From assembly GCA_973895155.1 (NCBI GenBank), contig OZ316899.1, positions 14,015,934-14,079,933 on the forward strand: a stretch of 64,000 nt of DNA, written 5' to 3'. Shown piece after piece: positions 1,059 to 62,924 of the stretch. This stretch comes from Marsupella aquatica. Its lineage: Eukaryota > Plantae > Marchantiophyta. The first letter of the stretch is position 1. Each line of letters begins with the position of its first letter. Below the pieces are notes generated by a model. That model saw only the letters and a list, made by a program, of their open reading frames with translations. It had not been told where the DNA came from and made no database searches. The translations under genes were made by a program, and so were the position numbers.

Positions 1059-1848
1059 GCTACTGCAATGAATTGGAATGGCCACACAAGGATGCAGAGC
1101 AGACATACATTTGGTATGTTGAGCCCACACACAAAACTGATCCCCTAATACAATTTCTCCACCAACACCTCCATTTTAATTGTGGCTATGATTCACCAAA
1201 GGAGATCTACAACAACATTTCATGCATTTGAATCACATACAATAGTTGTGACATGTAAAACAGGCATTCTTCGAAGAGGATTGGTATGAAGCAGTGTCAT
1301 AAGGGTTGAAATTTATACATCCTAAATAGGCTATGATAGTGGCTGAGACAAATAAGTGAGGCATAAATCACATTTTGCAGGTTATCACATGGCCCATTAA
1401 TTCATTCAACGTTGCAATGTTCACCAGGTTAAAGCAATATTAAAGCAGTCTTTCAATAGAGACTTTTAAGCGAGTTTGCTAGCCTCTTAAATTAGGATAT
1501 TTTGCTTAGTGTAGGCATAATAGGATAAGTTATGTACTGTTGACCCTAAACCCTGGACCCAAAATTGCTCATACATCAAAATTTTAAGTAAATATCCTCT
1601 ATATTGAAGTCAGAGAGTGTTAAGCTATAGGTCAATGGTATCTGGTCTGTGCATGCGGTGTGACAAGTGGTCCTCTAGAGCATGTGATCCAAACATGTGT
1701 AGACACCAAAGCCACCAGTGGTGGGGTCTGGGAGGGCAGGACAAGTGACATCACCAGGCACACTGCAGGATGGCGAGTGGTTCTAGATGATACATTGTGC
1801 TCTGTGCAAAAATTGGCATCCAAGAGAACGGTCATCCAATTTTGGGCC

Positions 1849-4800
1849 TGTGGTGCGTCCCATGGCTCCCTAAACCCAAGAAACCCCCCAGCTCAAGCCG
1901 ATTCCCACAGGTTTTGCGCTTGGCGAGGCCGTTTCCGCGGCTTAACGGCATGGGACGCTGCTAACCTTCTACTACTACTATTAACATTTTACACACATAT
2001 ACTGGACAGATTCTTCATCGGGTCATGAGATACGTAGCCGGCCTAATCTAGGCCTTCCCCTGTCTTCCCCTCCATCTTGTTAGGTATGTTTGGATTCCGC
2101 CGCCGGAATGATCCCCAGTAGGCTTGGTTAAGCCGCTAAGACCTCTCTCAGCTCGACACATCCAACTCTCACTCCCCTGCTTACTTTCCTTCCTTTTGGT
2201 TGATGTGGGCACTCTTCACACAAGTTAATGCGACACACAAATAGCAAAATGACTCATTCTGACTGAGTCATACCATGCACTTGCCATACAAACAGTACAT
2301 CTCATACACAAGCTCTGCGAACTAAGCCGTGAGGCCAACTCTATTCAACTCTTAGGCATGAGGAAACATGAATATACACAAGGGTCACTGTATGACTAAC
2401 CGAGAGCTTCTCGTACTACTTGATCCCAGCCCGGCTGGTGCAAACTAAAAACTTGCTAAAGAAGAGGCCCTGAGCTCCCCGCTGCCCAGGTACTTATCCT
2501 GGTAGTGGATCCGCCATTCTTTGCATCGTAAGCCTAATCTACTTAACAGTAATCTACTTGCCCGAATCTACCTATGTACAGCAAGGCAGGAGCACAAGTG
2601 TTGCTCCTACCAGTGGGACCGCAATCCCACTAAGCTAAGTGTCAGGGCCGCTCCTGGTCCTGATCCTAATCTTAAACTTGGAGATCAGCGCCCGCCCTGC
2701 CCACTCACGCCTCCTCCCTCCACGTCCGCCCTCCCTAAAAGGAACGGCGCCCTTGCACCGTCACGACACCGGTGGTGGATCCTTAATGGACGCCCCCAAT
2801 GCTTCCTCCTCAGCCACTGCCGTAGGTTTATTTTCTGACAGATTACCTGCCCTTGACTGAGTCAACTCTCCATCGGCCTGACTGGGTCCACCATCGGCGT
2901 CGGCATCGGCTCGGGAATCGGTTACGGCCTCAGCCTCGGCTACGGTCTCCCCGGCCTGCTCAAGAGGCGGATCTGGAATACCGGCCTCATTACTGAGTAG
3001 TTCGGCTTGGGCCGCACCACCCCCACCTGTGATGATAGCGGGATCTATTGCCGTATTCATGCCGGAGGATGGTGCTGGTTCTACCTCCTTGGTCACCACG
3101 GCTTGTGGAGTCGGATTACTCCTTGACCCTGAAGGTTTCCGCTTTTTCTTCTTTTCTGGTTCGGCAGCTGGTCCCTTCCCCTTCCCACTTACTTCCGGCA
3201 CTGGTGCAGGTGGCGCGGCTTTTTCTTCGGCCAGTACCACTCCTGGTAACTTGGTTGCCCCAATTGGAGTTGGGCCTGATGAAGACAAGCACTTAAATAC
3301 TGCGGCTTGTTTCTTCAGCCGCTCCGTTTGGTTGTCGGCCCGCCGCTGGAGGTTCTCCATCTTCCTCGTGATTTCCTCCAACTCCTCCTGGGTCTCATCC
3401 AGGTCCTTGCATGCCTCCTCTAGTTCCTTCTGGGCTTCCTCCCGTTCTTGTTTCAAGGTAGTCCTCTCCTCCCGGGTTGCTCTTAGCTCCTTGTCGAGCT
3501 CTGCAATGATGACAGACTCCATCTGGTTCATCTTGGCGTAAGTCTGTTCGAGCATCTCGTCCTTCTTCCTTAGGTCGGCCTTGAAGCTGGCCGTCAGGGA
3601 CGCAAGCTCCTGCTGCAGCGCCATAATCCCTTGATAGGATTTCCCTAACTCGGCCTCCTTCTGCTCAAGGGCTCCGCGGATTTTCTTGAGCTCCCCCTTC
3701 AACGCCCATTCCTTTCTTTGGGTCTCCGCCATGGCCCGGCTGTTGGCTGTTATGTGGGCCTCCTCTGTATTCTTCAGCTCTTGCTTCCACTTCTCCCTCT
3801 CTTTGATCGTGTCGGCCAACTCTCCCTGCGTCTGAGTCAGTTTTTCCTTGATATTCTGATTATCAGCCTGCGCGGTGTCCAACTGCCCCTGCATGATGTT
3901 CAGCTCATGCCGTTTAATCCGCAGTTCATCTTGGGCTTTCTTGGCCGCCCTTAGATCTTCAATCTTGGCTTCCATCCTCCTAAGCCGCCGAATGACCTCG
4001 TCCTTCTTGCTTCTCTCTAAAGCCACCGCTTCTTCTAATTGGTGCTTCTCCAATTGCTCCCTATGGAAAAAGGGTCCTACCTCCAACTCCTCTCCAAAGA
4101 TGCCGAGCGCAAGTTCCCCACACATCTCACCATACTCCATGGCTCTATTCTTAGCGTAGGTGGAGTAAGTAGAAGTGATCGGCATCGCCCATCGCGGCCT
4201 CTGCTCCCAAGCCGTCCTGCGGATCTCTTCAATCGTGGCTAGAGGTTTGCTTCCTTTTTTGGCTAGCCGCCTGATGTCCTCCGGCCAATCTCCTCCTGGA
4301 AAATCCTTTTCCCTATCCAGGGCTGGCTCCTCTTCCTGCCTGATTTGCTCCTGAAATTCCTGCACCGTCTGTTTTATGCCGTCAAAGCTCGGGGGAGCAA
4401 CATCTGGTGGGGGAGACTCAGGGCTACTCTGCTGGTTGGGGTCCCCTCGCACTACCCTTGGAAGTGTGGGGACAAACCGGCCACAGGTCCTTACTTCTGG
4501 AATGTGATGGTCCGACCCATAGCCGGAATTATCATGGCTGCAGTCCTCCACTGCCTCCTCTACTTCTTGGACGTCCGGCTTCTCCCTCTCCTCTTCGTCG
4601 GTAGGAGCTTCAGGCAATTCTGCCTCAGATTCGGAGCTTGAGATTCCCACATACATTCGAACACCTGGCTTGGATTCCGGCCTGATTCTCTCCTTGTCTC
4701 CAGCAAAGGGGTTTTCTCTTGTGAGCCGGTGTAGGCCTACCTCTGTAGTAGTGTCCTGCATTGTTGCCGTTGCCGTTGTTGTTGCCGATGCCGATTTCTT

Positions 4801-6511
4801 TTCTTTCTCCAGTAGTTTCAGCAGACTCTGCATGCCTGGTTGCTGCATCGGCAAGTCCTCCTTCCTGGGCCTAAACACCTGCTCGATCGTAGGGCTAACA
4901 GGTGGTTGAGGCTTCTCAGCCAACGGCCTCGGCGTTGGAGCTTCCTCGGGTGCCCTTACCTGCAGGGGAAGTACTGGGGCAAAAGTCTGACCTCTGGCAT
5001 ACCGGCACAACAGCGGCATGTGATAGCCAAGCCGCAATACGCTCCCCATGCCGATTACCTGCTGCTCCTCCTTTAAGATCTTCTTCAATTGGTTGAGGAG
5101 GTACCCGTTGTAGTCCCGGCTTGGGTCTGGCCTTTCTGCCAGATAGACCTGTGCTTTGCCGATCTCTGCCCTCGGCAAGTTACAATGCATGGTCACCCGC
5201 AAGAAGTCGATCATCTCTCCTATGTGCGGGTTGGTGCAGGTGTTCCGGAAGAAGCCATTCTTCGTTGATGGCCCGAGGAACGACCGGAACTCCTTGTCAG
5301 GCAAGGTCTTCCTGGTATCAACTTTGGTCTTATTGCCTATCGGCAAGCCAAACACTTCGGCAATTACCTTGGGAGTAAGATAGAAATCCTTCCCATATAT
5401 CCTCGTGCAATTGGTCTCGGGTTCCCATAACCCCACGAATTCTAATAGGTTTGACTCCGGTACCTCCGGCTTCAGCCATGGTAATCTTACAAAGGCCTCT
5501 AAGCCGGATCCGGCCATGAAGCCTTGGTACTTCTTGGTCTGCATGGCCGTAAAGCATGCATCCTCCTCCCGTGCAAAATGTAGTTGCACCTCCACCGGTA
5601 GGGTTGCCGCCCAGCCCTTCCAGGTGTCATCCCTGGTTGGAATGGCCTTGATGGGATCGACCTCCTCCTCTTCGGCTTCTCCCTGCCTCCTGCTCTGCTG
5701 CTCGGCTGGCTTCTTTGGTGCCGCCGACCTCGTTCTTTTTGCCGGGGTGGCTTCATCGTTGACGGCTCCCTTCCTCTTCATCTCTGCTGCCGTGGAGGTT
5801 TCTCCTAGCACCGTTGCCTGGGTCCACCTTTCCGTGCTACCCTTTAATTCCCAGTGTATGTCGTTGCAGTTCTTGATGGCCTCTCGGATGCCGACGACGC
5901 TGTCTTTGCAAAACAGAAGATCGTCGAGTTGATTGGAAGTAGGCGTCCACAGGAACTCGTCCTTGATGAGTTCGCCTCCTAAGAAAGTTGTCTTCTGCAG
6001 CTCCCACAATCGAGTGAGCTCCTGCCGTTCTCGACCTGCTCTTTCTGATTCCTCGTCCTCGTAAGTCTTGATGTACTCAGTTGCCCGTTCGAACAGGCAT
6101 CCCCAGAAATGTGCCGCTTGATTGACGTTGCTCATACCCTCCTTAGGTCGATCGTCGGTATCTACTCTCTCCCCGAGTGCTTGCCTAAGCAACTGACAGT
6201 AGTTGGCCTCCCGTAGTCGTCTGCCTAGTTCGTGCTCGCAAATGAGCCACCATCTCCTGCAAGCGCTCCTTACCCCTCTCCTCTGCCGGTCCTTCTTCCC
6301 GTTGATCCTTCCTAGCCGCCGACGCTTAACGTGCCCTAACCCTAATCGAGTTTTCACCCTCAGCGTCCTTACCTCCGGCCTCGGCCCGGGTTCCATGGTT
6401 GCCCCTAATTGTTTATATTTTCCTTGTTTTGTCCCTATACTAAGGTGTTCCTAGGGTGCCTTCCTGCTTTACCCACTTAACTGGCCGAGTGATTCCTGTC
6501 TAGGCATCACA
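1849..6511 (-). mobile_element. Family A copy 1: gene-bearing solo-LTR-like unit (4663 bp)
   Basis: Ends TGTGGTGCG...GGCATCACA (imperfect inverted TGTGRTGC termini). Perfect 5-bp TSD GGGCC at 1844-1848 and 6512-6516. Collinear with three other copies in the window. No gag/pol. Confidence 0.93.
2761..6396 (-). CDS. LTR-encoded accessory protein, 1211 aa: PMD/Athila-ORF1-like domain, acidic linker, long coiled coil, Lys-rich NLS-like tail
   Basis: Uninterrupted ORF. The motif GLEAFVRLPW...LLEFVGLWEPETNCTRIYGKDFYLTPKVIAEVFGLPIG resembles the W.PET...T...V....GLP..G core of the plant mobile domain and the EF....G....I...LGLP core of Athila-type extra ORFs. E/K/L heptad region of about 250 aa. 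The true start could be the downstream MSNVN ATG. Confidence 0.8.
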   Translation of the reverse strand: MEPGPRPEVRTLRVKTRLGLGHVKRRRLGRINGKKDRQRRGVRSACRRWWLICEHELGRRLREANYCQLLRQALGERVDTDDRPKEGMSNVNQAAHFWGCLFERATEYIKTYEDEESERAGRERQELTRLWELQKTTFLGGELIKDEFLWTPTSNQLDDLLFCKDSVVGIREAIKNCNDIHWELKGSTERWTQATVLGETSTAAEMKRKGAVNDEATPAKRTRSAAPKKPAEQQSRRQGEAEEEEVDPIKAIPTRDDTWKGWAATLPVEVQLHFAREEDACFTAMQTKKYQGFMAGSGLEAFVRLPWLKPEVPESNLLEFVGLWEPETNCTRIYGKDFYLTPKVIAEVFGLPIGNKTKVDTRKTLPDKEFRSFLGPSTKNGFFRNTCTNPHIGEMIDFLRVTMHCNLPRAEIGKAQVYLAERPDPSRDYNGYLLNQLKKILKEEQQVIGMGSVLRLGYHMPLLCRYARGQTFAPVLPLQVRAPEEAPTPRPLAEKPQPPVSPTIEQVFRPRKEDLPMQQPGMQSLLKLLEKEKKSASATTTATATMQDTTTEVGLHRLTRENPFAGDKERIRPESKPGVRMYVGISSSESEAELPEAPTDEEEREKPDVQEVEEAVEDCSHDNSGYGSDHHIPEVRTCGRFVPTLPRVVRGDPNQQSSPESPPPDVAPPSFDGIKQTVQEFQEQIRQEEEPALDREKDFPGGDWPEDIRRLAKKGSKPLATIEEIRRTAWEQRPRWAMPITSTYSTYAKNRAMEYGEMCGELALGIFGEELEVGPFFHREQLEKHQLEEAVALERSKKDEVIRRLRRMEAKIEDLRAAKKAQDELRIKRHELNIMQGQLDTAQADNQNIKEKLTQTQGELADTIKEREKWKQELKNTEEAHITANSRAMAETQRKEWALKGELKKIRGALEQKEAELGKSYQGIMALQQELASLTASFKADLRKKDEMLEQTYAKMNQMESVIIAELDKELRATREERTTLKQEREEAQKELEEACKDLDETQEELEEITRKMENLQRRADNQTERLKKQAAVFKCLSSSGPTPIGATKLPGVVLAEEKAAPPAPVPEVSGKGKGPAAEPEKKKKRKPSGSRSNPTPQAVVTKEVEPAPSSGMNTAIDPAIITGGGGAAQAELLSNEAGIPDPPLEQAGETVAEAEAVTDSRADADADGGPSQADGELTQSRAGNLSENKPTAVAEEEALGASIKDPPPVS

Positions 6512-12712: not shown

Positions 12713-14314
12713 TTTATCCCCTCGGGTAAGCCAAAAATCATCTTCAGACGTGCCTCATTGAGACACATCACTCTCCCGTGCGCTCAGGTTTGTTGATGGG
12801 CCTCGTCAAAGTTTTGAATGAACTCCGCCATATCCTGCCCGTAGTACCTGCTTCTATTCCAAGGGAGAGAGGCGAGGTGCTCAAACCCTTGGGTCTTCAG
12901 ATAGCATGCATGCTTGGGGTGGAGGATGTTCTTGTGAACGTTGTCCCCATGCGATGCATGGTCAGCTTGGCTACCGCAACCATGGCCAAAGGCAACCCAG
13001 ATACGGCTGCGGGCTCCTTCCTCTTCCTACCCCAAGACTGATTCCCGGGGTGACTAGAAGAGGGGCACATCTCTCCATCCTCTCGGTCAGGTGGTGGTAG
13101 CGCGACTGCCGCGAGTATTGGTGCCGAGGCCGCTAGAGTTATTGTGTTATCCCCTCGGGCTTGCTGGAGTGGTGCTGGGTTGTTTGGCTCTTGTTGAGTC
13201 GTACCCAGTGGCCGTTGATTCAGAGGAGGGTGAGCCTCCTCGTCTTCAAAGCTAATATTTACCGCATTCACCACGGATTGTATTTGCAGAGGCGGTGGGA
13301 CCGGTGGCGGGGACCGGCTCGGCTGAGGCCGAGGAGGTGTAGGCGCGGGTACGGGCACGGGTTGGCCGGCACTGGTCGTTGATGGTAGAGTTGCCATGAA
13401 GTTTTGCAGGTGCCGGTGGAGGTTCTCCAAAGCAAGTGAAGACGGCCTGGTCGACCGGGCAGTGTTGAACTCGCTATTGATGATAGCTCGGACCTGAGCG
13501 GGGATGTGGTCAAAGTGGTGTCGCTGCAAGTCAATCGTGCCCGGGATATTGAAGACCTCATCCGGAAGCCGAAGCAATGCCTCCCAGAAGCCGATGTATT
13601 TGCCTCCGTCGAAGAAGTACCCTGATACTTCTTTGGGTTGGTAAAGCTCCCTCTGGGACGGGTAATCAAAGTTAAGGAGATAGTGGTGTCATCCTGCTAG
13701 GCGGATGGCTCTCTCATATTTGCGTTCAATCTTGTATCGACGCGGGTTGGCGTGTTTCAATGAGTCGTCCAAGTGCCCTCCGATAGACAGGAACTGAGTC
13801 CAGAATCGTATGGCCGAACTGGAAAGGATTGTGTGCGACATTCTGAGGAGATAGCAGGTGACTAAGGAAAAGCGAGAGAGCCGGGGTCGAAGCTGACGCG
13901 TGGACTGAAGAACTGGTGCACTACAAAGGATCGGCCCCCTTTTATACCCTGAGAGCTCGTCGACTGCCCAACGCCTCCTCATCACTTATAGGCCAAGCCT
14001 TTCATGCTTGTCGTGTACCGGCCCCTTTGCCGGTCCAGGTTAGCTCGTGTCAGTGGCCGCCTCCTGGAGTTTGTTATACGGACCCGAGGGAGGGGGAAAG
14101 GGGGCCCATTACACGCTCGCAACCCGGGTGTGCGAATGGCGACCCGCCGCCAGCCCGAACATGAATTCCCCTTATTGACTAATATTTTCCTACTCATAAT
14201 GGTTACCTAAATACTATCGTTATGCTAATAATAACGGCCTAAGATACCCCTAACGCACGTGCTAAGCGCGATTAGACAAAATCACTCATTACCCACCGTA
14301 CCGGCGGCGTCACA
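12713..14314 (-). repeat. B' 3' LTR (truncated), including the 5' part of the LTR-encoded ORF
   Basis: Starts TGTGACGCCGCCGG at 14314, as the B LTRs do. TATAAAA at about 13941-13947. Coding sequence from ATG 13841 is homologous to the B LTR ORF (LRLPDEVFNIPGTIDLQ, GLPLA.VAVAK.TMHRMG) and breaks off after IFGLPEG. Confidence 0.85.
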
Positions 14315-16070
14315 TAGCTTCCTGCTTAATTGTGAAGCGTCCTCGCAAACATCACTCTCGGCATTGTCGTCTTGATGGTGGTACTTCTTCACACGATCAT
14401 AACTGACTCGCGTGGGTAGTAAATCGCCGGCATACATTGCGAGTTCCAAAGATCCGTTAGGGTAGATCTGATTGACTAGGAAAGGCCCTAGCCAATGGGT
14501 ATGAAGTTTCCCCGAAAACTGCATGTACCTACTATCGTACAGCAGGACTAGATTGCCTGTCACGACGTCGACCTTCCGTAGTCCTTTGTCGTGCTGCTTC
14601 TTGGAAGCTACCTGCTGCTTGATGACGTGTCGAGCTGCCAGTAGTCGTGCTTCTTCTAATGCTTCAATCTTATAAGCTCTATCCGACAAACTTTCAGCTT
14701 TGGGTAAGCGATCCCGAATGCTTACCCGGGGAGTGTGGACTTCAAACTCAACGGGCACCAACGAATGTTGGCCGAACACGAGAAAGTACGGGCTGTGACT
14801 CGTAGTAGTCTTGTAAGCCAGATTATACGAATACACCGTTGCGTACAACTTGTCATCCCAATCCATTTTGTGCGCGGCTACTGTCTTGTTGAGGATCTTC
14901 CCAATGATACCATTGGCTCTCTCTGTCAGCCCGTTGGCTTTAGGATGATACGGGGTAGTCTTGCGGTGCTTGACTAGGTAACGCTCCGTAAGCTGGGCTA
15001 CGATGTCATTGAGGAAGTGTGTTCCACGGTCGCTTACTAACTCCAAGGGCGGCCCAAACCGGGTGAAGATCTGCTCGTATAAGAACCTGGCACTGGTTGC
15101 AGCGTCGTCCTTTACCGTAGCCCGTGCTTCGACCCATTTGGTGGAGTAATCTATAGCTAGCAGGATGTACCTGCATCTTTGTCGTCGGATAACGGGAGTG
15201 AACGGCCCGATATAATCAATACCCCACTTCTCGAATGGTGCTAGCGGGAGCACAGAAGTGAGGGGGTGGTTATGGGTTCTCCTCGGGGCACCAGCCCGCT
15301 GGCACAAATCACATCCCTTGATAAAGCGTTGTACATCTTGATACAACGTAGGCCACCAATACCCCAAATCCAGAAGCTTTCGGGCTGTCGTGAGAGATGC
15401 AAAATGGCCTCCGAGTTCTTCTTCATGCAAGGCCCGCATAACGATGAGCATCTCCTTGTACTCTAAGCAGCGTTGTAGCTTCCCATTAACTCCTTCCTTA
15501 TGTAGGTGACCCCGTATCATAACGTATGGCCCGGCCTTTCGTAAAAACACAGCGGCGGCCTCCTGATTGATGCCATTGGGGATGCGGCCTGTTAAGAGGA
15601 AGGTGATTATTGAGGCGTACCACGTAGGCGCTCCCGCCCCTACGTGGAATAACTCCTTATCCGGAAAAGTATCATTAATTGGCTGATCGACTGGTACGCC
15701 GTCCAGCCTTGAAAAGAAGTCGGCGTTGAGATGTGCCTTTCCTGGCCAAACCCAAACTTCGTAGTTAAATTCCTGGAGAAGTAGCACCCACCGAGCTATC
15801 CATCCCGTCACGTCCGCTTCGTTGACCATGTACTTCAGGCTATTGTGATCCGTGTGGAATATGACCTTGTAGCCGAGCAGATAGTGTTGGAACTTCTTAC
15901 ATGAGTAGATTATTCCCAGAGCTTCTCGATCAGTGGGAGAATAATTATTTTTTTGGCTGTGAATAGTTGACGGCTAGCGAAGTAGATGGGGTGGTCACGT
16001 CCGTCCTCATCAAGTTGACTGAGCACGGACCCGATACAGAATCCTGACACATCAACATACACATGGAACT
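14282..16070 (-). pseudogene. B' pol: RNase H and integrase
   Basis: ARWVLLLQEF, H..GH...C..C zinc finger, WGIDYIGP, SDRGTHF, YHPKANGLTER and WLGPF. Frameshifts in the RH part. Confidence 0.92.
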
Positions 16071-19000
16071 TGTGATGCCTAGCCAGGAATCACTCGGCCA
16101 GTTAAGTAGGTAAAGCAGGAGTTCACCCTAGAAACACCTTAGTATAGGGACAAAACAAAGAAAATATAAACAATTAGGGGCGACTATGGAACCCGGGCCG
16201 AGGCTGGAGGTAAGGACGCTGGGGGTGAAAACAAGATTAGGGTTAGGGCGCGCTAAGCATCGGCGGCTAGGAAGGATCAACGGGAGGAAGAACCGGAAGA
16301 GGAGAGGGGTAAGGAGCGCTTGCAGGGAATGGTGGCTCATTTGCGAGCACGAACTAGGCAGACGACTACGGGAGGCCAACTACTGTCAGCTGCTTAGGCA
16401 AGCACTCGGGGAGAGAGTAGATACCGACGATCAACCTAAGGAGGGTATGAGCAACGTCAATCAAGCGGCACATTTCTGGGGATGCCTGTTCGAACGGGCA
16501 ACTGAGTACATCAAGACTTATGAGGACGAAGAATCAGAAAGGGCAGCTCAAGAACGGCAGGAGCTTGCTCGATTGTGGGAGTTGCAGAAGACGGCTTTCT
16601 TAGGAGGCGAACTCATCAAGGCCGAGTTCTTGTGGACTCCTACTTCCAATCAGCTCGACGATCTTCGGTTTTGCGAAGATAGAGTCGTCGGCATCCGAGA
16701 AGCCATCAAACGCTGCAACAACATACACTGGGAGTTGAAGGGTAGCATGGAGGGGTGGACAAAGGCAACCGTGCTAGGAGAGACATCCACGGGAGCCGAA
16801 ATGAAGAGGAAGGGAGCCGTCAACGATGAAGCCACCCCGGAAAAAAGAATGAGGTCGGCGGCACCAAAGAAGCCAGCCGAGCAGCAGAGCAGCAGAGCAG
16901 CAGAGCAGCAGAGCAGGAGGCAGGGAGAAGCCAAAGAGGAGGACAATCCCATCAATGCCATTCCAACCAGGGATGACACCTGGAAGGGCTGGGCGGCAAC
17001 CCTACCAGAGGAGGTGCAACTACATTTTGCACGGGAGGAGGATGCATGCTTTACGGCCATGCAGACCAAGAAGTACCAAGGCTTCATGGCCGGATCCGGC
17101 TTAGAGGCCTTTGTAAGATTACCATGGCTGAAGCCGGAGTTGCCGGATTCAGACTTATTAGAATTCGTGGGGTCATGGGAACTCGAGACCAATTCCACCA
17201 GGATATATGGGAAGGATTTCTATCTTACTCCCAAGGTGATTGCCGAAGTGTTTGGCTTGCCGATAGGCAATAAGACCAAAGTTGATACCAGGAAGACCTT
17301 GCCTGACAAGGAGTTCCGGTCGTTCCCCGGGCCATCAATGAAGAATGGCTTCTTCCGGAACACCTGCACCAACCCGCACATAGGAGAGATGATCAACTTC
17401 TTGCGAGTGACCATGCATTGTAACTTGCCGAGGGCAGAGATTGGCAAGGCACAGGTCTATCTGGCAGAGAGGCCAGACCCAAGCCGGGACTGCAACGGGT
17501 ACCTCCTCAACCAATTGAAGAAGATCTTAAAGGAGGAGCAGCAGGTAATCGGCATGGGGAGCGTGTCGCGGCTTGGCTATCACATGCCGCTGTTGTGCCG
17601 GTATGCCAGAGGTCAGACCTTTGCCCCAGTACTTCCCCTACAGGTAAGGACACCCGAGGAAGCTCTAGCACCAAGGCCGGTAGCAGAGAAGCCTCAACCA
17701 CCTGTTAGCCGTACGATTGAGCAGGTGTTTAGGCCAAGGAAGGAAGACTTGCCGATGCAGCAACCAAGCATGCAGAATCTGCTGAAAATGCTGGAGAAGG
17801 AAAAGATGGCACTGGCACCAGCTTCGGCAGCGGCACCAATACAGGACACTGCCCCAGAGGTCAACCTAAGCAGACTTAGAAGGGAAAACCCCTTTACCGG
17901 AAATAAGGAGAGAATCAGGCCAGAATCCAAGCCGGGTGTTCGAATGTACGTGGGAGTCTCAAGCTCTGAATCTGAGGCAGAATTGCCTGAAGCTCCTTCC
18001 GGCGAAGACGAGAGGGAGAAGCCGGAAGTCCAAGGGTTGGAGGAGGCAGTGGAGGACTGCAGCCATGATAACTCCGGCTATGGGTCGGACCATCACGTTC
18101 CAGGAGTAAGGACCTGTGGCCGGTTTATCCCCACACTTCCAAGGGTAGTTCGAGGGGATCCCAACCAGCAGAGTAGCCCCGAGTCTCCCCCACCAGATGT
18201 TGCTCCCCCGAGCTTTGACGGCATAAAGCAGACGGCACAGGAATTCCAGGAGCGACTTAGGGAAGCAGAAAAGGCAGCCCTGGCTAGGGAAAAGGATTTG
18301 CCAGGAGGAGATTGGCCGGAGGACATCAGGCGGCTAGCCGAAAAAGGAAGCAAACCTCTAGCCACGATTGAAGAGATCCGCAAGACGGCTTGGGAGTAGA
18401 GGCCGCGATGGGCGATGCCGATCACTTCTACTTACTCCACCTACGCTAAGAATAGAGCCATGGAGTATGGTGAGATATGTGGGGAACTTGCGCTCGGCAT
18501 CTTTGGGGAGGAGTTGGAGGTAGGACCCTTTTTCCATAGGGAGCAGCTGGAGAAGCACCAATTAGAAGAAGCGGTGGCTTTAGAGAGAAGCAAGAAGGAC
18601 GTGGTCATCCGGCGGCTTAGGAGGATGGAAGCCGAGATTGAAGATCTAAGGGCGGCCAAGAAAGCCCAAGATGAACTACGGATTAAGCGGCATGAACTGA
18701 ACATCATGCAGGGGCAGTTGGACACCGCGCAGGCTGATAATCAGATTATCAAGGATAAACTGACTCAGACCCAGGAAGAATTGGCCGACGCAATCAAGGA
18801 CAGGGAGAAATGGAAGAAGGAGCTGAGAGACGCAGAGGAGGCCCATATAGCAGTCAACAACCGGGTCGCGGCGGAGACTCAGAGAAGGGAGAGGGCGCTG
18901 AAGGGAGAGCTCGAGGTCATCCGCCGAGCCCTTGAGCAGAAGGAGGCCGAGTTAGGGAAATCCTATCAAGGGATTGTTGCGCTACAGCAGGAGCTTGCGT

Positions 19001-20763
19001 CCCTGACGGCCAGCTTCAAGGCCGACCTGCGGGAGAAGGACGCCCAGCTCGACCAGACTTATGCCAAGATGAATAACATGGAGTCTGAGGTCGTAGCGGA
19101 GCTCGACAAGGAGCTAAGAGCAACCCAGGAGGAGAGGGCTACCACCAAGAAGGAATTGGAGGAAGCCCACAGGGAATTGGAGGAAGCCAAAAACGAGTTG
19201 GAGGAGGCACGTAAGGACCTGGATGAGACCCAGGAGGAGTTGGAAGAAATCACGAGGAAGATGGAGAACCTACAGCGGCGGGCCGACAACCAAACAGAGC
19301 GGCTGAAGAAACAAGCCGCAGTATTTAAATGCTTAGCTGCATCAGGTCCATCTCCAGTTGGGGCAAACCAGTTACCCGGGGTGATAATTGCCGAAGGACC
19401 AGCCGTGACACACGGCCCGGTGCCGGACGTTGGCGGCAAGGGGAAGGAACCGGCTATGGAGATAGTGAAGAAGAAGAAGAAGCAGAAACCTTCGGGGTCC
19501 GGAGGTTATTCGACCCCTCAAGCCGTACTCAAACCGGTACCAACCTCCGGCATGAACACGGCAATAGATTCCGCTACCACCAAAGGTGGGGATGGCGCGA
19601 CCCAAGCCGAACTACTCAGTAATGAGGCCGGTATCCCAGATCCACCTCTTGAGCAAGCCGGGGAGGCCGTGGCCGATGCTGAGGCCGTAGCCGAGGCTGA
19701 TGTTGAAGCCGATGCCGTTGCCGGGGGTGGACCCAGTCAGGCCGATGGAGAGTTGACTCAGTCAAGGGCAGGTAATCTGTCAGAGAACGAACCTACGGCA
19801 GTGGCTGAGGTGGAAGCGTTGGGGGCGTCCACTGAGGAACAGCCACCGCTGCCATGACGGTGGTGGAGGGCCGCTCCTTTCAAGGAGGGCGGACGTGGAG
19901 GGAGGAGGCGTGAGTGGGCAGGGCGGGCTCAGATCTCTAAGTTTAGGATTAGGATCAGGACCAGGAGGCGGCCCCAACACTTAGCTTAGTGGGATTGCGG
20001 TTCCACTGGTAAGAGCAACACTTGTACTCCTGCCTCGCTGTACATAGGTAGATCCAGTTAGGTAGATTAGGCTTACGCTGCAAAGAATTAGGCGGATCCA
20101 CTACCAGGATAAGTACGTGGGTAGCGGGGAGCTCAGGGCCTCTTCTTTAGCAAGTTTTTAGTTTGCACCAATCGGGCTGGGATCAAGTAGTAAGAGAAGC
20201 TCTCGGTTAGTCATACAGTGACCCTTGTGTATATTCATGTTTCCTCATGCCTAAGAGCTGAATAGAGTTGGCCTCACGGCTTAGTTCGCAGAGCTTGTGT
20301 ATGAGATGTACTGTTTGTATGGCAAGTGCATGGTATGACTCAGTCAGAAGGAGTCATTTTGCTATTTATGTGTCGCATTAACTTGTGTGAAGAGTGCCCA
20401 CATCAACCAATACAGGAAGGAAAGTAAGCAGGGGAGTGAGAGTTGGATGTGTCGAGCTGAGAGAGATCTTAGTGGCTTAACCAAGCCTATTGGGGATCAT
20501 TCCGGCGGCGGAATCCAAACATACCTAACAAGACGGAGGGGAAGACAAGGGAAGGCCTAGATTAGGCCGGCTACGTATCTCATGACCCGATGAAGGATCT
20601 GTCCAGTATATGTGTGTAAAATGTTAATAGTAGTAGTAGAAGGAGGTTAGCAGCGTCCCATGCCGCTAAGCCGCAGAAACGGCCTCGCCAAGCGCAAAAC
20701 CTGCGGGAATCGGCTTGCGCTGGGGGGGTTTCTTGGGTTTAGGGAGCCATGGGACGCACCACA
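16071..20763 (+). mobile_element. Family A copy 2: gene-bearing solo-LTR-like unit (4693 bp) inserted in B' pol
   Basis: TGTGATGCC...GCACCACA ends. Perfect TSD GAACT at 16066-16070 and 20764-20768. Splits the host RT/RH at NKEF|HVYVDVSGF. Confidence 0.95.
16186..19857 (+). pseudogene. Family A accessory ORF with a single premature stop
   Basis: ORFs 16186-18399 and 18415-19857 are in the same frame, separated by a CAG>TAG change at 18397-18399. Confidence 0.85.
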
Positions 20764-23700
20764 GAACTCCTTATTCTCGTCCGGAGTGACCATGATAGGT
20801 GCGGTGGTGAGTCGTTTACGGAGTTCTTCGAAAGCAATCCGTCTTTTGGGTGTCTCCTCGATCACCGCATCCTTCTTCATCATCTCAGTTAAGGGCAACG
20901 CAATCTTAGCAAAATCTTTAATGAATCGACGATAGTACCCTACACAGCCCAAGAAGGATCGTACCGCTTTTTGATCTATGGGAAACACCACCGCCATCCA
21001 AGCCGCGACCTTCTCTTGGTCCACCTCGATACCCCGTTTGGACACACGATGTCCAAGTAACACTCCCTCCTCTACCCCAAAAAAACATTTGGCGGGATGT
21101 AGCTTGAGGTTAACCTCTCGGCATTTTTGTAGCGTACGTCGTAGATGTTTGGGGTGCATGGCAACGGTTCCAAAGATGGCAAAGTTGTCGATAAATATTT
21201 CCAGAAATTCCTGTAGGAAATTGTGGAAGATATTCATCATGAGTCGCTGACACATGGCCGGGGTGTTACACAGCCCAAATGGCATTCTTCAAAATGCGAA
21301 TGTCCCCCATTCCGTAGTGAACGTTGTTTTGAGCTGATCCGAGAGGCGGATCCAGATTTGATTATAACCCGAATACCCGTCAAGGAATGTATAAATTTTG
21401 TTTTGGGCTACCATATCGAGAACCATATCCGTGAATGGTAACGGGTAATGGTCTTTCCAGGTTGCGTCGTTTAGCTTACGATAGTCCTGATAGATCTGAA
21501 TCTTAGGTTTTCCGTCCGTACCTCCCTTCTTTGGTACAATGACAATGGGAGAAACCCAGTCGCTGGCCATTACCGGGTAGATGATATCTACGGCGAGGAG
21601 ACGATCAATTTCCTCCTTCACTGAGATGGAGTACCTCAGGTTCATGCAATGTTGTTGCTGCCGTACTGCATGGGCCCCCAGGTTCAAATCGATCGTGTGT
21701 TCTCCCAACTCGGGGGAGACTCCCGTCAAATCGTGATGGCTCCATGCGAACACATCTTCATATTCCTTGAGCAGTGCTTGGATAGATTTTTCCGCCTCCC
21801 CATCAGAGCATGGCCCAGGTTAAAAGACTTATCCATCCCAATGGTGTACTTCCGGTAGTGCTCCTTTCTTATGACTTCCACCTGGTTCTGCAAGCTCGGG
21901 TCCAGGCTTGCATCCAGTTCAGCTAACCGAACTCCTCCGTACATGGGTGGAACCAGGATCGGTTTTGGATTTGGGGTTAATTCCTCCAATTGCAGGATGG
22001 ACGGGTCCGAGGAGACTCGTTTCTTATGTCTCGGTCTCGGGTTTTCGGCCTCAGGCAGTTTTTTGGCCGGTTTGTGGTCACTAGGCTCTGCACTGGTAGA
22101 AGCAGCATCGACTCCTTGCTTAGCTGGAGCCGTGTCCTCCGTATTGATGGGCCATTTTTGCATTTCATCGGTCTGGGCGGTAGAGGTGCTCGGGGTGGAC
22201 TCAATAGCAACCTTTGGGTAATTCAGGAGATGTGTTTCCCGGGTTGCCTCTACTCCGAAGACATCTTCCTCGAACAGGGATGAAATGAGTTCAATCATAT
22301 TGAGCTCATCTTCCTCCGAGGTCTCCGAATCATATTCTTTGGGTCCCTGCAAGGTTTCACCCTGATAATCATCCATTGCCCATGATACTCGTACTGTGGG
22401 TGTCCCGAACCGTAGCTCCTTCTTTCCCCAATCCGTGACTACTCGGCCACCATACAACCACGGCCTGCCCAGAAGGACCGGATAAGAGGAGGGCCAAACC
22501 GGCCTCATGACTAGGAAGTTGAGATAGAACTCCACCCCTCCTACAAGAGTGAGCACCCGAGTGAGCGTGCCCAATGGGAGGACCCTTGCCCCATTTGCTA
22601 ATCTGATAGCTCGGGCTGTGGGTTGATACGTGAGGTATCCTAACTTGACTGATGTTTCCTCAGTCATGATGTTAACTCCCGCTCCTCCGTCTACGAGAAC
22701 CATCTTGATGGTACAATTATTGATCTCAATCGAGATGTCCGACGCTCCTAGGTCTTCGCATATCATGTTGCAGTCCGCGATCCCAACTCGGGGTAGTCGC
22801 CTCCATCGCCGACCCATAAGCAACTCCCTCAGTTGCCGTCGGTACTGTGGATTGTTCTATAGCAGTTGCCCTACCGTTGCCATAACCGGGCAACTCTTCA
22901 CGTCTTCCTTAATATCATAGTCCTCCTTCTTTTCTTCCTTCGGCTGCTGCTTGGCTTCCTCCTCTTGCTTTTCTTGCTCCTATCGTCAGGCGGCCTCGGT
23001 TGCTTTGATGTCCTTATCGATTGCTTTCTGGTATTCCCAAGCTTTGTAGGCCTCCAACTGTTTCTTTACCAATTCTTCAATGCGGGGATAAAATAGCTTT
23101 GGGTCGTCCCCACGGTAGTCATTGTCCTTCTCCGGGGGTATATCTATCGCTGGCTGCACTAGAGTAGTATCTTGCTTTTTCCTGCATTTTTCTTCCTGTT
23201 TTTCTTCCTTCCGCTCGGTTCTTGTTGACCCTCGGTAGCACTCAGCCTCGTCCGATGGATTAGGGTGCTCCGCCATGTCCACCAGATTTACCCACTCGGT
23301 GTTGTCATCTTGCCATTCCACAGCAATCATTTGGACGACTACATTGCTCGTGGCCGGTCCGCCCTGGGACGGTCTTGCTGCGTTTGTTCGAGCGGCTATT
23401 ACCAATGGACAGTTGGCCGTGGAGTGAGCTTCCATTTTGCAGACTTGACATAGTGGTGTGCCTCGGCCATCCCCCTGGGCGTCTTGGTTCGGTGCATTCC
23501 CTCGCAAAGTGGCCTGGCTTCTCACAGTTGTAACAAACTGGGGATCTCCAAATCCCTGGGTTAGGAGGAATGCTCGGGTTACTAATAACTTGGAAACTTC
23601 TGCCATTGTTTGGGTAGGGGTATGCAGTTCTACTTGCTAAGTTACGCGGACCCACCATTGAAATCTGATACACCGAATAAGGGGGATCTTCAAAGAAATA

Positions 23701-24870
23701 CTCCGTGGACTCCGATTCAGGTCCCAGGTTGTCAACATCATCTAATTCCACCTGGTGGATTCGGTTCTTCCATCTTGGGCATTCCCGCACTACATGCTCG
23801 GATTGGAAACACTTTGAACACCACGCATGTGCTTGGGTCTCGGGTGGCTTCTTCTTCTCCACAGGCTTTTCTGCGAGATGTATTGACAGTGCTTTGAGAC
23901 GATCCGTGATTTTGTTAAGCTTGTCTGCCTTGGCGGCCTTTGGATCGGGTATCGTTCTTCGAACACGGGGCTTGATTTTTCCCTCCTTCTTAACCCGCCT
24001 CTTCTTCTTTTTGCCCCGGCTCTTGCTCTCCGAATCACTTCCGGATGAGCTAGAAGTGGAGGATCTGCTGGTTGAAGTCGAATCCAAACTAGATTATGTC
24101 TCCGAACTGGACGAGGTCGAACGATGTTTCTTCTTTTTCTTGCGTTTCTTCTTCTTCTCGTCGTCCGATTTGGAGTTACTGTCACTGAAGGTCTCGTACT
24201 TGCCCTTCCTGCGGCGTGCCCGCTGGCTTTGCCGGGAGTTATAGGTGGACTCCCGGTAGGTTTCGGCGCATGCTATGGCTGCTTGCATTGAAATTGGGTT
24301 ATTCTTGCGCACCCAGAATTGCATATTAGTGGGCAAACCATGGAGGAACCACGTAAGCTGGAGCGCGTCACCCGGCCTAGGCTGGATCTTGGCAGCAAGT
24401 TTCTGAAACTTCTGAATGTACTTTCATAGGGACTCCTTCTTTCCCATGCAAAGTTGGCCGATCTTTAATAAAGAACGCTGCTCTGATCCAATGGCACGAA
24501 AATCTTGGAGCAACGCAGCTTGGAATTGTGCCCATGTAGTCCCGGGTGGCAGCGAGTTGTACCATGGACGAGCTTCTCCCCGCATCACTCCAAGGAGGAC
24601 GGTTAGCTTAATGGCTTCTTCCCCATTGGCCTTAGCAGTGGCTTCAAACTCATCCAACCATTCATCCAGATCATCCCCATGACGCCCTTTGAAAGGTCAA
24701 TAATGGAACCGCGACCGTTGTGATATTTGTGGGGGAGCTTGGACAGCACGGGCCATAGCCGGTAGGGCGGCTGCCATAGGTACTGGTGGCGGTGGCGGTG
24801 CTGGTGGTGGTGCAGCAGGACCGGTTGGACCGGACCCCGAAGGTCCCGATGGTATGTTCATTCGTCAAGG
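20764..24870 (-). pseudogene. B' gag-protease-RT (frameshifts and stops)
   Basis: Gag core (WMDEFEATAKANG), three CCHC knuckles, protease LVDGGAG, RT WVSPIVIVPKK, DHYPLP, LDGYSGYNQI and MPFGLCN. Confidence 0.92.
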
Positions 24871-26340
24871 CGATTGCGAGTCCTCCAAACCTGAAGAGTC
24901 AGAGCTTGTGGGGGTTGCACTCTCTCGTTCAATGGTCAATCTCCTCAAGTAAGCTGCTTGAGAACGAGTGACGAGCATTTACTCGTATAAATGCAATGGT
25001 TAGTAACTCACAAGGGCCTGGTGTATTCTGCCCAGGTGCACCCGCACATGTCTCCCTTCTACTATACGTAGAGTGCCCCCTCCATCTAGCGCCAAAAACA
25101 AAGGCTATATCACGCCGTCAGCCTAGGCCTTAACCCGGGCTTTGGCTTAGACAGGCACATCCTTTGTTAATATGAGGGTTCGGGCAGGGGGGGAGAGTCG
25201 CGGAACTCGACTACCTTAACACTTAGCTCCGGCATCGCTGACTCCGACGCCGAGCTCCCTTATGGTCTAGGCCCGGATAGGCCATCCGGGGAGGACTTAG
25301 CATGGGGAGACTCGTGGGCAATGAGAGTGGCACTGGCGAGTCGAGGGGCCAAGCTAGGGACACAAACTAAGGACTTGGACTAGCCTATGGCTGGTCGGGT
25401 CATGGGGAAATGGGTCGGGCTCAAGGATGGCCATCCGGACCGTCGGATGGGCTTTGAGTTCTGATGGCTTGGGAGTGAGCTCCTCTTGGGCCCAAGGCCA
25501 ATGGAGTTGACGCCATTGGTAACGAACGCTTGGGGCGCAAGTTGTGGCCCGATCCAGGTTGGGCCGGTCGGGGGCCCCGAGTGGCGATCAGACCTGAGGG
25601 CCTGGCATGAGCACTGGGTCGGCCCGGTCACAACAGGCTAAGGCACTCCGCTTGCGGATGCCTATCAAGAAAGTTATCGGTGTTGCCAGTTGGTGGAGCC
25701 CCTATTATGCGCGATGGGATCCGGGTTGGGGGCCAAATGTTTAGGGACCAAAACTGGTCCGGGGGTGGCAGGTCTCCAGAAGCATATATGAGGAGAGTGG
25801 TGTCTCCTTGGGGGCTAAGGGCGAGCCGAAGTCGTGAGCCGCGGCGGTCGCGACACTAAGGGAAACCGCCAAACGGAAATGACAATATCTTCCCAACGGG
25901 AAGTCCGTTGGAGGACTTCTTGGGTGCGTTGGAAAGCTCTTGAGGAGGGCTACGCCCTCCTGAGCTCTGATGGGTCCGAGGGTGTGATGCCGCCGGTACG
26001 GCGGTTAATGAGTGATTCGGTCTAACTACGCTCAGCGCCGCGTTAGGAGTGTCTTAGGCCGCTATTATTAGCATAACGATAGTATTTAGGTAATCATTAT
26101 GGGTAGGACATCATTAGGCAATAAGGGGGAATTCAGGTTTGGACTGGCGACGGGTCGCTATTTGCACACCCGGGTTACGAGCGTGGAGGGGCCCCTCCCT
26201 TGGGTCCGTATAACGAACTTAAGGAAGCGGCCACTGACACGCGCTGACTCAGACCGGCGGAGTGGCCGGTACACCACAAGCGTGAGCGGTTCAGCCTATG
26301 GGCGTCGAGGAGATGTCGGGGGATCGGCAAGCCCTCAAGG

Positions 26341-26348
26341 TATAAAAA
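26341..26348 (+). promoter_or_regulatory. TATA box upstream of the B LTR ORF
   Basis: TATAAAAA about 108 bp before ATG 26449. Conserved at 40717 and in B' (about 13941, minus strand). Confidence 0.6.
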
Positions 26349-26672
26349 GGGAGCCGACCCTTTGGAGTGCACCAGTCCATCAGTCCACGCGCCAGCTTCG
26401 ACCCCAGCTCTCTCGTTTGCTCTAAGTCGCCACTACTATCTCCTCTGAATGTCGCACACGATCCTCTCCAGCTCGGCCATTCGATTCTGGACGCAGTTCC
26501 TATCTACCGGAAGGCACTTGGCCGACTCATTGAAACACGCCAACCCGCGCCGATACGAAATCGAACGCGAGTACGAGAGAACCATCCGCCTAGCAGGATG
26601 ACACCACTACATCCTTAACTTTGACTACCCGTCTCAGAGCGAGCTTTACCGACCAGCAGAGGTATCTGGGTA

Positions 26673-29600: not shown

Positions 29601-31526
29601 GTCCTGCATTGTTGCCGTTGCCGTTGTCGTTGCCGATGCCGATCTCTTTTCTTTCTCCAGTAGTTTCAGCAGATTCTGCATGCCTGGTTGCTGCATCGGC
29701 AAGTCCTCCGTCCTTGGCCTAAACACCTGCTCGATCGTAGGGCTAACAGGTGGTTGAGGCTTCTCTGCTACCGGCCTCGGTGCTGGAGCTTCCTCGGGTG
29801 CCCTTACCTGTACGGGAAGTACTGGGGCAAAGGTCTGACCTCTGGCATACCGGCACAACAGCGGCATGTGATAGCCAAGCCGCGACACGCTCCCCATGCC
29901 GATTACCTGCTGCTCCTCCTTTAAGATCTTCTTCAATTGGTTGAGGAGGTACCCATTGTAGTCCCGGCTTGGGTCTGGCCTCTCTGCCAGATAGACCTGT
30001 GCCTTGCTGATCTCTGCCCTCGGCAAGTTACAGTGCATGGTCACCCGCAAGAAGTCGATCATCTCTCCTATGTGTGGGTTGGTGCAGGTGTTCCGGAAGA
30101 AGCCATTCTTCGTTGATGGCCCGGGGAACGACCGGAACTCCTTGTCAGGCACGGTCTTCCTGGTATCAACTTTGGTCTTATTGCCTATCGGCAAGCCAAA
30201 CACTTCGGCAATCACCTTGGGAGTAAGATAGAAATCCTTCCCATATATCCTCGTGCAATTGGTCTCGGGTTCCCATGACCCCACGAATTCTAATAGGTCT
30301 GAATCCGGTACCTCCGGCTTCAGCCATGGTAATCTTACAAAGGCCTCTAAGCTGGATCCGGCCATGAAGCCTGGGTACTTCTTGGTCTGCATGGCCGTAA
30401 AGCATGCATCCTCCTCCCGTGCAAAATGTAGTTGCACCTCCACCGGTAGGGTTGCCGCCCAGCCCTTCCAGGTGTCATCCCTGGTTGGAATGGCCTTGAT
30501 GGGATCGACCTCCTCCTCTTCGGCTTCTCCCTGCCTCCTGCTCTGCTGCTCGGCTGGCTTCTTTGGTGCCGCCGACCTCGTTCTTTTTGCTGGGGTGGCT
30601 TCATCGTTGACGGCTCCCTTCCTCTTCATCTCTGTTGCCGTGGAGGTTTCTCTCAGAGCAAGCTTTACTGACCAGCAGAAGTATCTGGGTACTTCTTCAA
30701 CGGAGACAAATATATCGGTTTCTAGGAAGCATTGCTTCGGTCTATCGGACGAGGTCTTCCGGACGAGGTCTTCAATCGTTGACGGCTCCCTTCCTCTTCA
30801 TCTCTGCTGCCGTGGAGGTTTCTCCTAGCACCGTTGCCGGGGTCCACCTTTCCGTGCTACCCTTCAATTCCCAGTGTATGTCGTTGCAGTTCTTGATGGC
30901 CTCTCGAATGCCGATGATTCTGTCTTCATAAAACAGAAGATCGTCGAGCTGATTGGAAGTAGGAGTCCACAAGAACTCGTCGTTGATGAGTTTGCCTCCT
31001 AAGAAAGCCGTCTTTTGTAGCTCCCACAATCGAGCGAGCTCCTGCCGTTCTCGAGCTGCCCTTTCTGATTCCTCGTCCTCGTAAGTCTTGATGTACTCAG
31101 TTGCCCGTTCGAACAGGCATCCCCAGAAATGTGCCGCTTGATTGACGTTGCTCCCTCCTTAGGTCGATCGTCGGTATCTACTCTCTCCCCGAGTGCTTGC
31201 CTAAGCAGCTGACAGTAGTTGGCCTCCCATAGTCGTCTGCCTAGTTCGTGCTCGCAAATGAGCCACCATCTCCTGCAAGCGCTCCTTACCCTCTCCTCTT
31301 CCGGTCCTTCCTCCCGTTGATCCTTCCTAGCCGCCGACGCTTAACGCGCCCTAACCCTAATCGAGTTTTCACCCCCAGCGTCCTTACTTCCGGCCTCGGC
31401 ACGGGTTCCATGGTCGCCCCTAATTGTTTATATTTTCCTTGTTTTGTCCCTATACTAAGGTGTTTCTAGGGTGCATTCCTGCTTTACCCACTTAACTGGC
31501 CGAGTGATTCCTGGCTAGGCATCACA
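26673..31526 (-). mobile_element. Family A copy 3: gene-bearing solo-LTR-like unit (4854 bp) inserted in the B 5' LTR
   Basis: TGTGGTGCG...GGCATCACA ends. Perfect TSD GGGTA at 26668-26672 and 31527-31531. Confidence 0.95.
27582..31411 (-). pseudogene. Family A accessory ORF, disrupted
   Basis: Homologous to 2761-6396. Stop at 28371-28373, insertion at 30651-30776 and small deletions near the 5' end. Confidence 0.85.
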
Positions 31527-34500: not shown

Positions 34501-34559
34501 GGTGACAACGCCGGGCCGAACGCACTACCCGAATCATGCACGAGGTGCAGCTTGCGGGG

Positions 34560-62560: not shown

Positions 62561-62924
62561 GGTTTACTAGGAGTTTCGATTAGATTGGTACTCATCTCAT
62601 AATTGTGCGGTGCCATGATGGAGCCCGACTAGGTCGAAGCGAATGCATGGGAGCTTGGGCTGGTTCTACATGAAGGCGATTGTAATCAGGAATTTATTCG
62701 ATTGAAGGGCCTGTCTCGATGATTGTCCTGCCTTGTCCGTCTCTGCGTTGTCCCGCTCTGCGTCGTGAGCAGGACCACCCCCCTCTAGCGCGGCGTTTAG
62801 GGTGAGAGATTTGTTGCAGAGGTAGTCGTCTATGAGAAGGGATGAAAACAGGTCGATGGCAGCTGAGTGGTCGGTTTTTGGAGTGTCGATGGTGCTCTCA
62901 TCAAATGTGACGCCATTCATTCGG

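Follow-up and report, generated by a model that had tools for sequence, protein, structure and literature searches.

A large gene inside a probable solo LTR of Marsupella aquatica and inside the LTRs of a related gag-pol family

A stretch of 64,000 nucleotides from the liverwort Marsupella aquatica (assembly GCA_973895155.1, contig OZ316899.1, positions 14,015,934 to 14,079,933; hereafter the window) contains four copies, A to D, of a 4.7-kb unit that we call family U. Most of the unit is occupied by one open reading frame (ORF). We propose that family U is probably the solo long terminal repeat (LTR) of a land-plant non-chromovirus Ty3/Gypsy retrotransposon, and that its sense-oriented gene, which is under purifying selection, encodes a likely nuclear accessory protein serving the replicating element rather than the solo remnants. 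The same arrangement is directly demonstrated in a sister family, E, whose gag-pol elements lie in the same window and carry a homologous gene within their LTRs. Reviews put extra ORFs between the LTRs and treat solo LTRs as non-coding, whereas the two related families described here carry a gene of ~900-1100 residues inside LTRs of 4-4.7 kb. Coordinates are collected in Table 1.

The gene-bearing repeats of families U and E

An earlier note, made from the letters of the window alone, had described a TG...CA unit with a perfect 5-bp target-site duplication (TSD), four copies of it and a single ORF filling about 78% of its length. All of this is borne out. Copy A has TG...CA termini with GGGCC on either flank, and its empty site, in which position 1843 joins 6512 and a single GGGCC remains, was present in each of the four sequencing runs examined. 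For copies B and C, empty sites with a single 5-mer occur within the window, where sister copies of the interrupted elements lack the insertion. Because single-copy empty sites exist for A, B and C, their TSDs represent genuine target sites. Copy D is without the last 120 bp of its 3' end, hence the TSD can be tested only in A, B and C; it is perfect in all three. The ORF takes up 3636 of the 4663 bp of copy A. Copies B, C and D are 90-95% identical to A, and only A has an open frame, the other three being interrupted by stops or frameshifts; in copy C the frame shifts twice (codons 41 and 87), is split by a 172-nt insertion at codon 204 and meets a stop at codon 958. The DNA immediately flanking copy A is itself a high-copy repeat, and the 172-nt insertion of copy C (window 30652-30770) includes a second copy of C's own insertion site in the E LTR.

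As the note had also stated, the unit encodes no gag, pol or transposase: a Pfam scan of the U ORF returned no such domain. A search of Rfam and a metagenome scan with the U DNA end motif gave 0 matches each. No terminal direct repeat was found in the unit, and its ends form an imperfect inverted repeat of 8 bp (TGTGATGC vs TGTGGTGC, 7/8 matching).

Table 1. Features of families U and E in the window
Feature	Position	Strand	Remarks
Copy A of family U, likely solo LTR	1849..6511	(-)	4663 bp; 5' end TGTGATGCC at 6511, 3' end GCACCACA at 1849
TSD GGGCC of copy A	1844..1848, second copy 6512-6516		empty site in 4/4 sequencing runs
ORF of copy A	2761-6396	(-)	1211 codons from first ATG; possible true start Met88 at 6135 (1124 aa)
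Conserved domain, aa ~270-474	4975..5589	(-)	common to E-family LTR ORF and Calypogeia fissa proteins
Proline-free E/K/R/Q/L/A-rich stretch, aa ~801-1035 (~235 aa)	3292..3996	(-)	predicted coiled coil, then basic KKKKRK cluster
TATAAA	6412..6417	(-)	candidate core promoter; 95 bp from U 5' end
Non-coding tail	1849..2760	(-)	912 bp; conservation above ORF silent sites; weakly similar to E-LTR tail
14-nt palindromic motif TTCCGGCGGCGGAA	2095..2108	(-)	small hairpin
Copy B, solo	16071..20763	(+)	TSD GAACT; inserted in reverse transcriptase of element E1; one ORF stop, codon 732
Copy C, solo	26673..31526	(-)	TSD GGGTA; inserted in ORF of E2's 5' LTR
Copy D	49392..53931	(-)	adjoins integrase of third Gypsy family (F); stops at codons 49, 470, 676
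Element E1	12719..25194	(-)	LTR remnant, primer-binding site at 25094, gag-pol, 3' LTR from 14314 (TGTGACGCC)
Element E2, gag-pol sister family	25983..42036	(+)	flanks GAGGG/GGGGG
E2 5' LTR	from 25983 (TGTGATGCC)	(+)	interrupted by copy C; end and primer-binding site lost by deletion at ~34560
ORF in E2 5' LTR	26449-26672 then 31532-33965	(+)	885 codons, one frame, 8 internal stops, no frameshift
E2 gag-pol	34561-40357	(+)	gag, protease, reverse transcriptase, RNase H, integrase (Pfam)
E2 3' LTR	40358-41862	(+)	ORF deleted; primer-binding site at 41876

The best evidence for a gene inside an LTR comes from family E, a neighbouring gag-pol family whose identical layout the earlier note had missed. 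The two LTRs of element E2 are 97-98% identical where they overlap and jointly imply an LTR of ~4017 bp. The LTR ORF is located in the 5' LTR of E2 and in the 3' LTR of E1; in E1 the integrase frame continues into the 3' LTR, where the same LTR ORF is found, truncated at 12719. In E2 the ORF encodes a domain homologous to that of U, followed by a coiled coil. The coding nature of the E LTR ORF is reflected in an excess of third-position changes (71 vs 23 and 18 of ~141 codons, compared with 24/29/27 in a non-coding control).

Families E and U agree in several respects. Their proteins share 28% identity over 153 aa (E-value 2e-14), both LTRs begin with the 9-mer TGTGAYGCC, and the tails behind the ORF measure 895 bp in E and 912 bp in U. 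Alignments of the two tails scored 194 and 226, values reached by 1 and 0 of 300 shuffles, while the reverse-strand control was reached by 77 of 300. Because protein, tail and 5' 9-mer are shared, U corresponds end to end to the proven gene-bearing LTR of E. With at most one mismatch allowed, the 14-nt motif of the tail occurs in the window only in the four U copies and in two E-family LTR tails; the stability of its hairpin is no better than that of shuffled sequences.

Sequence beyond the ends of U was read in public contigs of the sequencing runs, in which loose ends are readable for 30 letters. A single contig of run X6, which has a different organism code and shares 0.49 of the words, continues past the GCACCACA end (206 loose letters) with four T and then 21 bases identical by eye, 21/21, to the primer-binding site (PBS) of E1 and E2; the TGG of this site begins 4 nt after the CA of the U 3' end. 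The PBS common to U (in X6) and the E elements presumably matches tRNA-Arg. The consensus of four X5 contigs at the same end agrees with the X6 stretch in 19 of 30 letters by hand count, which might be what one PBS-bearing contig in four could give. At the opposite end, one X6 contig has AAGGGGGAT immediately before the TG, a tract of 8 purines resembling a polypurine tract (PPT), and the U 5' terminus is sharp in all four runs. Of the two signals that the earlier note had predicted, the PBS behind GCACCACA is thus present in full in one X6 contig, and the PPT before TGTGATGCC has a candidate in this short tract, again in one X6 contig. With the PBS in X6 and a homologous LTR in family E, the unit is very likely an LTR, and the note's solo-LTR reading is upheld at that strength.

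Several side observations concern family E. An ORF at 31932-32756 was at one time considered an internal gene in the env position and was dropped, as it lies inside the E LTR. The 3' LTR of E2 (40358-41862, +) retains nothing of the ORF, which a deletion with 3-bp microhomology removed, so that a gene-less LTR of 1.5 kb stands beside a gene-bearing 5' LTR. It is followed (41863-42036, +) by a 13-nt spacer, a PBS and a leader of ~155 bp, which ends in GACGTGACA, a 9-mer resembling an LTR end, at the target duplication; this looks like a deletion-reduced tandem element or an integration at a cryptic end. In both E1 and E2, which are ~82% identical at 26449-26672 and 13618-13841, the frame of the LTR ORF is stopped at codon 51; this may reflect parallel mutation, a common defective ancestor or a later start. 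A third E-LTR fragment, comprising the coiled-coil end of the ORF and the tail with the 14-mer, lies at 42734-43915 (-) and is fused to the gag region of family F.

Selection on the gene and properties of its product

The U gene is under purifying selection across the family lineage. Pairwise dN/dS between the copies ranges from 0.335 to 0.44 in all six pairs, where the earlier note had named a neutral ratio together with a lack of transcripts as one result that would speak against its proposal. Relative to copy A, the three other copies show 145, 95 and 73 silent changes, compared with 100.9±7.8, 66.5±6.2 and 54.9±5.6 expected; context-matched placement gave an excess this large 0, 0 and 1 times in 2000. 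Codons 1-87 show no such silent-site excess. Indels within the ORF preserve the frame in 7 of 7 cases in B and in 4 of 4 in D.

The solo copies themselves present a different picture. Changes private to A (codons 88-1035) comprise 24 replacements and 10 silent ones, where a ratio of ~2.3:1 is expected without selection. Among 40 listed variant sites (there are 766 more), 28 fall in the ORF; at 18 of them A has the rare letter, giving 15 replacement and 3 silent changes, and the remaining 10 divide into 5 and 5. Since three of the four copies are broken and the private changes of A stand at the neutral ratio, solo copies appear to decay neutrally: selection is seen in the lineage, with no visible trace in the solos. 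Copy A looks intact because it is young. The divergence between copies is uneven along the ORF, reaching for the pair of A and D 1.6% in one 250-bp block and 24% in another, a pattern that fits recombination between U sub-lineages. With an LTR that is mosaic and for the most part coding, dating by LTR divergence is biased.

The U protein begins with a helical part and a basic linker; the conserved domain of ~200 aa comes next, joined by a linker rich in acidic residues and proline to a predicted coiled coil, and a basic cluster follows. The KKKKRK cluster is a possible nuclear localization signal (NLS); like the coiled coil, it was inferred from composition. No transmembrane segment was found, the highest Kyte-Doolittle mean over 19 residues being 0.96. 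The earlier note had called the product an intact protein of 1211 aa. The frame is indeed open in A, and the start is less certain. Met88 is followed by the first FW of the protein, and four relatives begin with Met 5-12 residues before a similar FW motif; in an ungapped window around FW the score supporting Met88 was reached by 16 of 300 shuffles. Further, only 21 bp separate TATAAA from the first ATG behind it (+95 vs +116), so that, if TATAAA is the promoter, the first ATG is too near to be in the mRNA. These hints weakly suggest that Met88 may be the true start, which would give a protein of ~1124 aa.

A phmmer search over 1.84 billion representative proteins yielded 16 matches to the U protein, and of 10 that were looked up two are from the liverwort Calypogeia fissa. 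One match, P0015, with helicase-associated repeats, is spurious; it was excluded from both protein alignments together with P0005 and P0016. Separate searches for homologous proteins found none, the last of them being weak and restricted to 1379-3935 aa. Two metagenome proteins of 787 aa, P0019 and P0022, have the same layout (FW start, shared domain, acidic linker, coiled coil); a metagenome scan with P0022 gave 74 candidate stretches, of which 0 were confirmed. A sequence search of the PDB returned 0 matches. AlphaFold models, with predicted local distance difference test scores (pLDDT) of 39 and 46, were too low to use, and a fold search with the second was uninformative, giving no hit with Z>=5.

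Hints about the affiliation of the protein come from the Atlas, where family neighbours below the 0.9 line serve only as leads. The U domain lies near the clusters of PF20167 and PF03078 (0.88 each, with 144 and 141 of 256 features), and the E ORF near those of PF10536 and PF09331 (0.84-0.85); for PF10536 the value is 0.85, with 136/256 features and the family on 20% of cluster members. On balance we lean towards placing the U protein with the Athila-ORF1/PMD-like accessory proteins. The label PMD-like, which the earlier note had applied to it, did not hold in the Pfam check against PF10536, PF03078 and PF20167, and with Atlas scores below 0.9 it is a lead only.

The TATAAA at +95 is the sole one in the unit and is present in all four U copies. 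In E2 the TATA-like TATAAAAA lies 108 bp upstream of the ATG of the LTR ORF, at +359, and is followed by a pyrimidine-rich stretch. A cluster of TGTA words, ~440-530 bp from the U 3' end, is a candidate poly(A) region, and the U tail contains neither TATAAA nor TATA[AT]A[AT]. With a TATA upstream of the ORF in both families and a TGTA-rich tail, a stand-alone mRNA from each LTR would be plausible. The note's picture of a promoter-plus-gene cassette is therefore anatomically plausible as far as the TATAAA upstream of the ORF is concerned; the gene half of it is broken in three of the four solos.

Origin of the unit and competing explanations

In the model we favour, a full-length element of the order LTR, PBS, internal region, PPT and LTR would integrate with a 5-bp TSD and carry the gene in both LTRs. 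The TATA near the 5' end of the LTR would drive an mRNA for a protein of ~1120 aa, polyadenylated in the tail of ~900 bp. Genomic RNA might arise from a second promoter, located in the tail, and the gene would then belong to U3; alternatively, the TATA used for the mRNA would serve here too and the R region would be ~4 kb long. Since the U tail is without a canonical TATA, a start at the +95 TATA stays viable. The protein would most likely regulate transcription or silencing of the element itself, as proposed for internal extra ORFs. The nuclear role is suggested by the basic clusters and by those proposals, as given in the accessible parts of the papers (PMC7264820; PMC11963269; PMC11728184). 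Finally, recombination between the two long LTRs would remove gag-pol and leave behind the gene, which would then decay neutrally.

A number of points weigh against this reading. No autonomous U element was seen, gag-pol being linked to a U copy in no contig, and the internal region is missing from all four copies in the window. Evidence for PBS and PPT amounts to one contig each, from a single run of another organism code, and the PPT-like tract comprises just 8 purines; the flanks of the U 5' end in X2, X4 and X5 are mixed, and no PBS was present in X1 or X2 among 24 listed of ~1400 loose-end rows (only empty-site ends). The 5' parts of the U and E LTRs have no detectable similarity (94/300 shuffles). 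In the conserved core alone (aa 251-470), which contains too few changes, the silent excess is not significant (274, 464 and 590 of 2000). A hidden Markov model of the N-termini of four relatives failed to find the Met88 region. The conserved domain had no Pfam match, including PF10536, PF20167 and PF03078, in the U ORF, in 18 proteins (E<=1) or in 19 alignment members (E<=10).

There are two other views of what U is. Its solitary copies in the window and the 7/8 inverted repeat at its ends would suit a self-contained non-autonomous DNA element with TG...CA ends, presumably of the kind called Ginger-like, if the X6 junctions were chance insertions beside a PBS or a purine tract. We regard this as very improbable. 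The unit has no long terminal inverted repeats (8 bp at most), and neither a transposase nor a DDE transposase/integrase was found; moreover, the PBS is where an LTR would have it (end, strand and distance), the proven E LTR has a homologous tail and protein, and along the ORF the copies switch between sub-lineages, a mosaic to be expected if template switching or gene conversion had been at work. The unit could also be the LTR of a non-autonomous derivative of the large retrotransposon derivative (LARD) type, which would lack its own gag-pol and depend on the E or F family for mobilisation. The PBS of U equals that of E over 21 bases, the 5' ends of the two families agree, and no U-linked pol was seen within the 30 readable letters of the internal region; nothing speaks directly against such a derivative, which we consider rather unlikely.

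Two further alternatives concern how the gene is used. It might be placed in U3 and be made, like nef or sag, only from spliced or internal transcripts of the full-length element's 3' LTR, in which case the +95 TATAAA would be no promoter and solos would be silent. The accessible text of one source places the LTR ORFs of mouse mammary tumour virus (MMTV) and lentiviruses in the 5' third of the LTR (PMC2664473). In U there are just 95 bp upstream of the TATA-like word, and the conserved tail could house the usual promoter, R and U5. On the other hand, the tail is devoid of both TATA forms searched for, and a TATA-like word precedes the ORF in both families, with the pyrimidine-rich stretch following it in E; we see this arrangement as possible, if doubtful. 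Alternatively, solo LTRs might stay expressed and supply the protein in trans, as an anti-silencing or chromatin factor, so that LTR-LTR recombination would multiply the accessory gene. The single TATAAA upstream of the ORF, its counterpart in the E LTR, the TGTA cluster, the open frame of A and the abundance of family U in several runs are all in favour, and expression from young, unselected solos would also fit the data; three of four solos are broken, however, and the private changes of A are neutral-like, and we find this unlikely. Similarly unlikely, in our opinion, is the wider scenario in which a non-seed-plant Gypsy lineage moved an accessory gene with its promoter and poly(A) site into the LTR (possibly with an R of ~4 kb), each solo LTR became a ready expression cassette, and the family is kept active by young solos that provide in trans a protein countering silencing or acting as a transactivator. 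If solos were expressed, the host's main route of deletion would leave a regulator behind; present evidence favours neutral decay, as in the solo-LTR model preferred here.

Relation to known elements and other features of the window

Families U and E resemble the plant non-chromovirus Ty3/Gypsy elements with extra ORFs (Athila ORF1, PF03078; Transposase_32, PF20167; Ogre PMD, PF10536; Retand TRP28) in having a large accessory ORF and no chromodomain, and also in a non-Met PBS, a 5-bp TSD and Atlas neighbours PF20167, PF03078, PF10536 and PF09331 (0.84-0.88). The U protein shares with those extra ORFs a basic NLS-like cluster and a predicted coiled coil. According to the accessible text of four papers, extra ORFs of the Athila, Ogre and Retand type are internal, situated either in the interval from the PBS to gag or in that from pol to the 3' LTR (PMC6317226; PMC7264820; PMC11728184; PMC11963269). 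In U and E, unlike these, the gene lies within the LTR, makes up 66-78% of it and persists after solo-LTR formation. The U ORF also differs in having no Pfam match and no transmembrane segment, the latter being the mark of an Athila env-like ORF.

As to size, the available text reports LTRs of 1.9-6.5 kb for Ogre (PMC6431247) and, for Retrosat2/RIRE3, LTRs of >3.2 kb with 2.6 solo LTRs per complete element (PMC3485330), long LTRs often leaving solos behind. Both resemble the present case in LTR size and in frequent solo LTRs. In what these sources describe, the Ogre extra ORF is internal and Retrosat2 ORF0 is upstream of gag-pol, with no LTR-borne gene, unlike U and E. Searches of the literature, covering mostly titles and abstract openings, found no plant LTR-internal gene, and the PBS string of U and E was not found in 17,418 characters of the supplement text of PMC6317226.

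Retroviral ORFs in LTRs are documented for MMTV sag and lentiviral nef, with LTRs of up to ~1.3 kb and short ORFs (PMC2664473, from the accessible portion of the text). As in these, the accessory gene of U and E is in sense orientation, occupies the 5' part of the LTR and is copied along with the LTR. Unlike sag and nef, it comprises ~0.9-1.1 thousand residues in a plant LTR of 4-4.7 kb, and the likeness drawn here is one of layout.

Among lineages of non-seed plants, Tat Z1/Z2, Phygy and Selgy are without an additional RNase H (aRH); Phygy and Selgy are described in the accessible text as short and without extra ORFs (PMC10508981; PMC6317226). The pol of a third Gypsy family in the window, F, resembles that of Tat Z1/Z2, Phygy and Selgy in its order of reverse transcriptase, RNase H and integrase with no second RNase H match, and its native RNase H keeps residues of the D/E/D type. 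No aRH was found in the F pol ORF or in the scanned E ORFs; the pol of E is in pieces and was not scanned whole. The occurrence of U protein homologs in a liverwort is in line with the non-seed-plant lineages Tat Z1/Z2, Phygy and Selgy.

The arrangement has practical consequences. Solo LTRs of such families risk being annotated as orphan host genes, or overlooked as LTRs. At the same time, a self-contained unit of this kind makes it possible to test what the Athila-ORF1/PF20167/PMD-like accessory proteins do.

Family F occupies 44068-55623 (+), with a gag containing a zinc knuckle, a near-intact pol and an integrase tail cut by copy D. Copy D was considered as the 3' LTR of this element and ruled out by its opposite strand and the lack of a PPT-like flank. 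Behind copy D, two open frames of 160 and 372 aa have no Pfam match and no likeness to the U/E gene. About 950 bp from copy A, at 151-903 (-), an ORF of 250 aa gives three weak matches to NSD-type PHD fingers under the Pfam cut-offs. Another repeat of ~1.5 kb with internal duplications is present at 57618-59109, 25196-25982 and 42037-42731, one copy being split by E2; it could be a further solo LTR. By eye, 61700-62750 (-) resembles a decayed Copia-like reverse transcriptase region.

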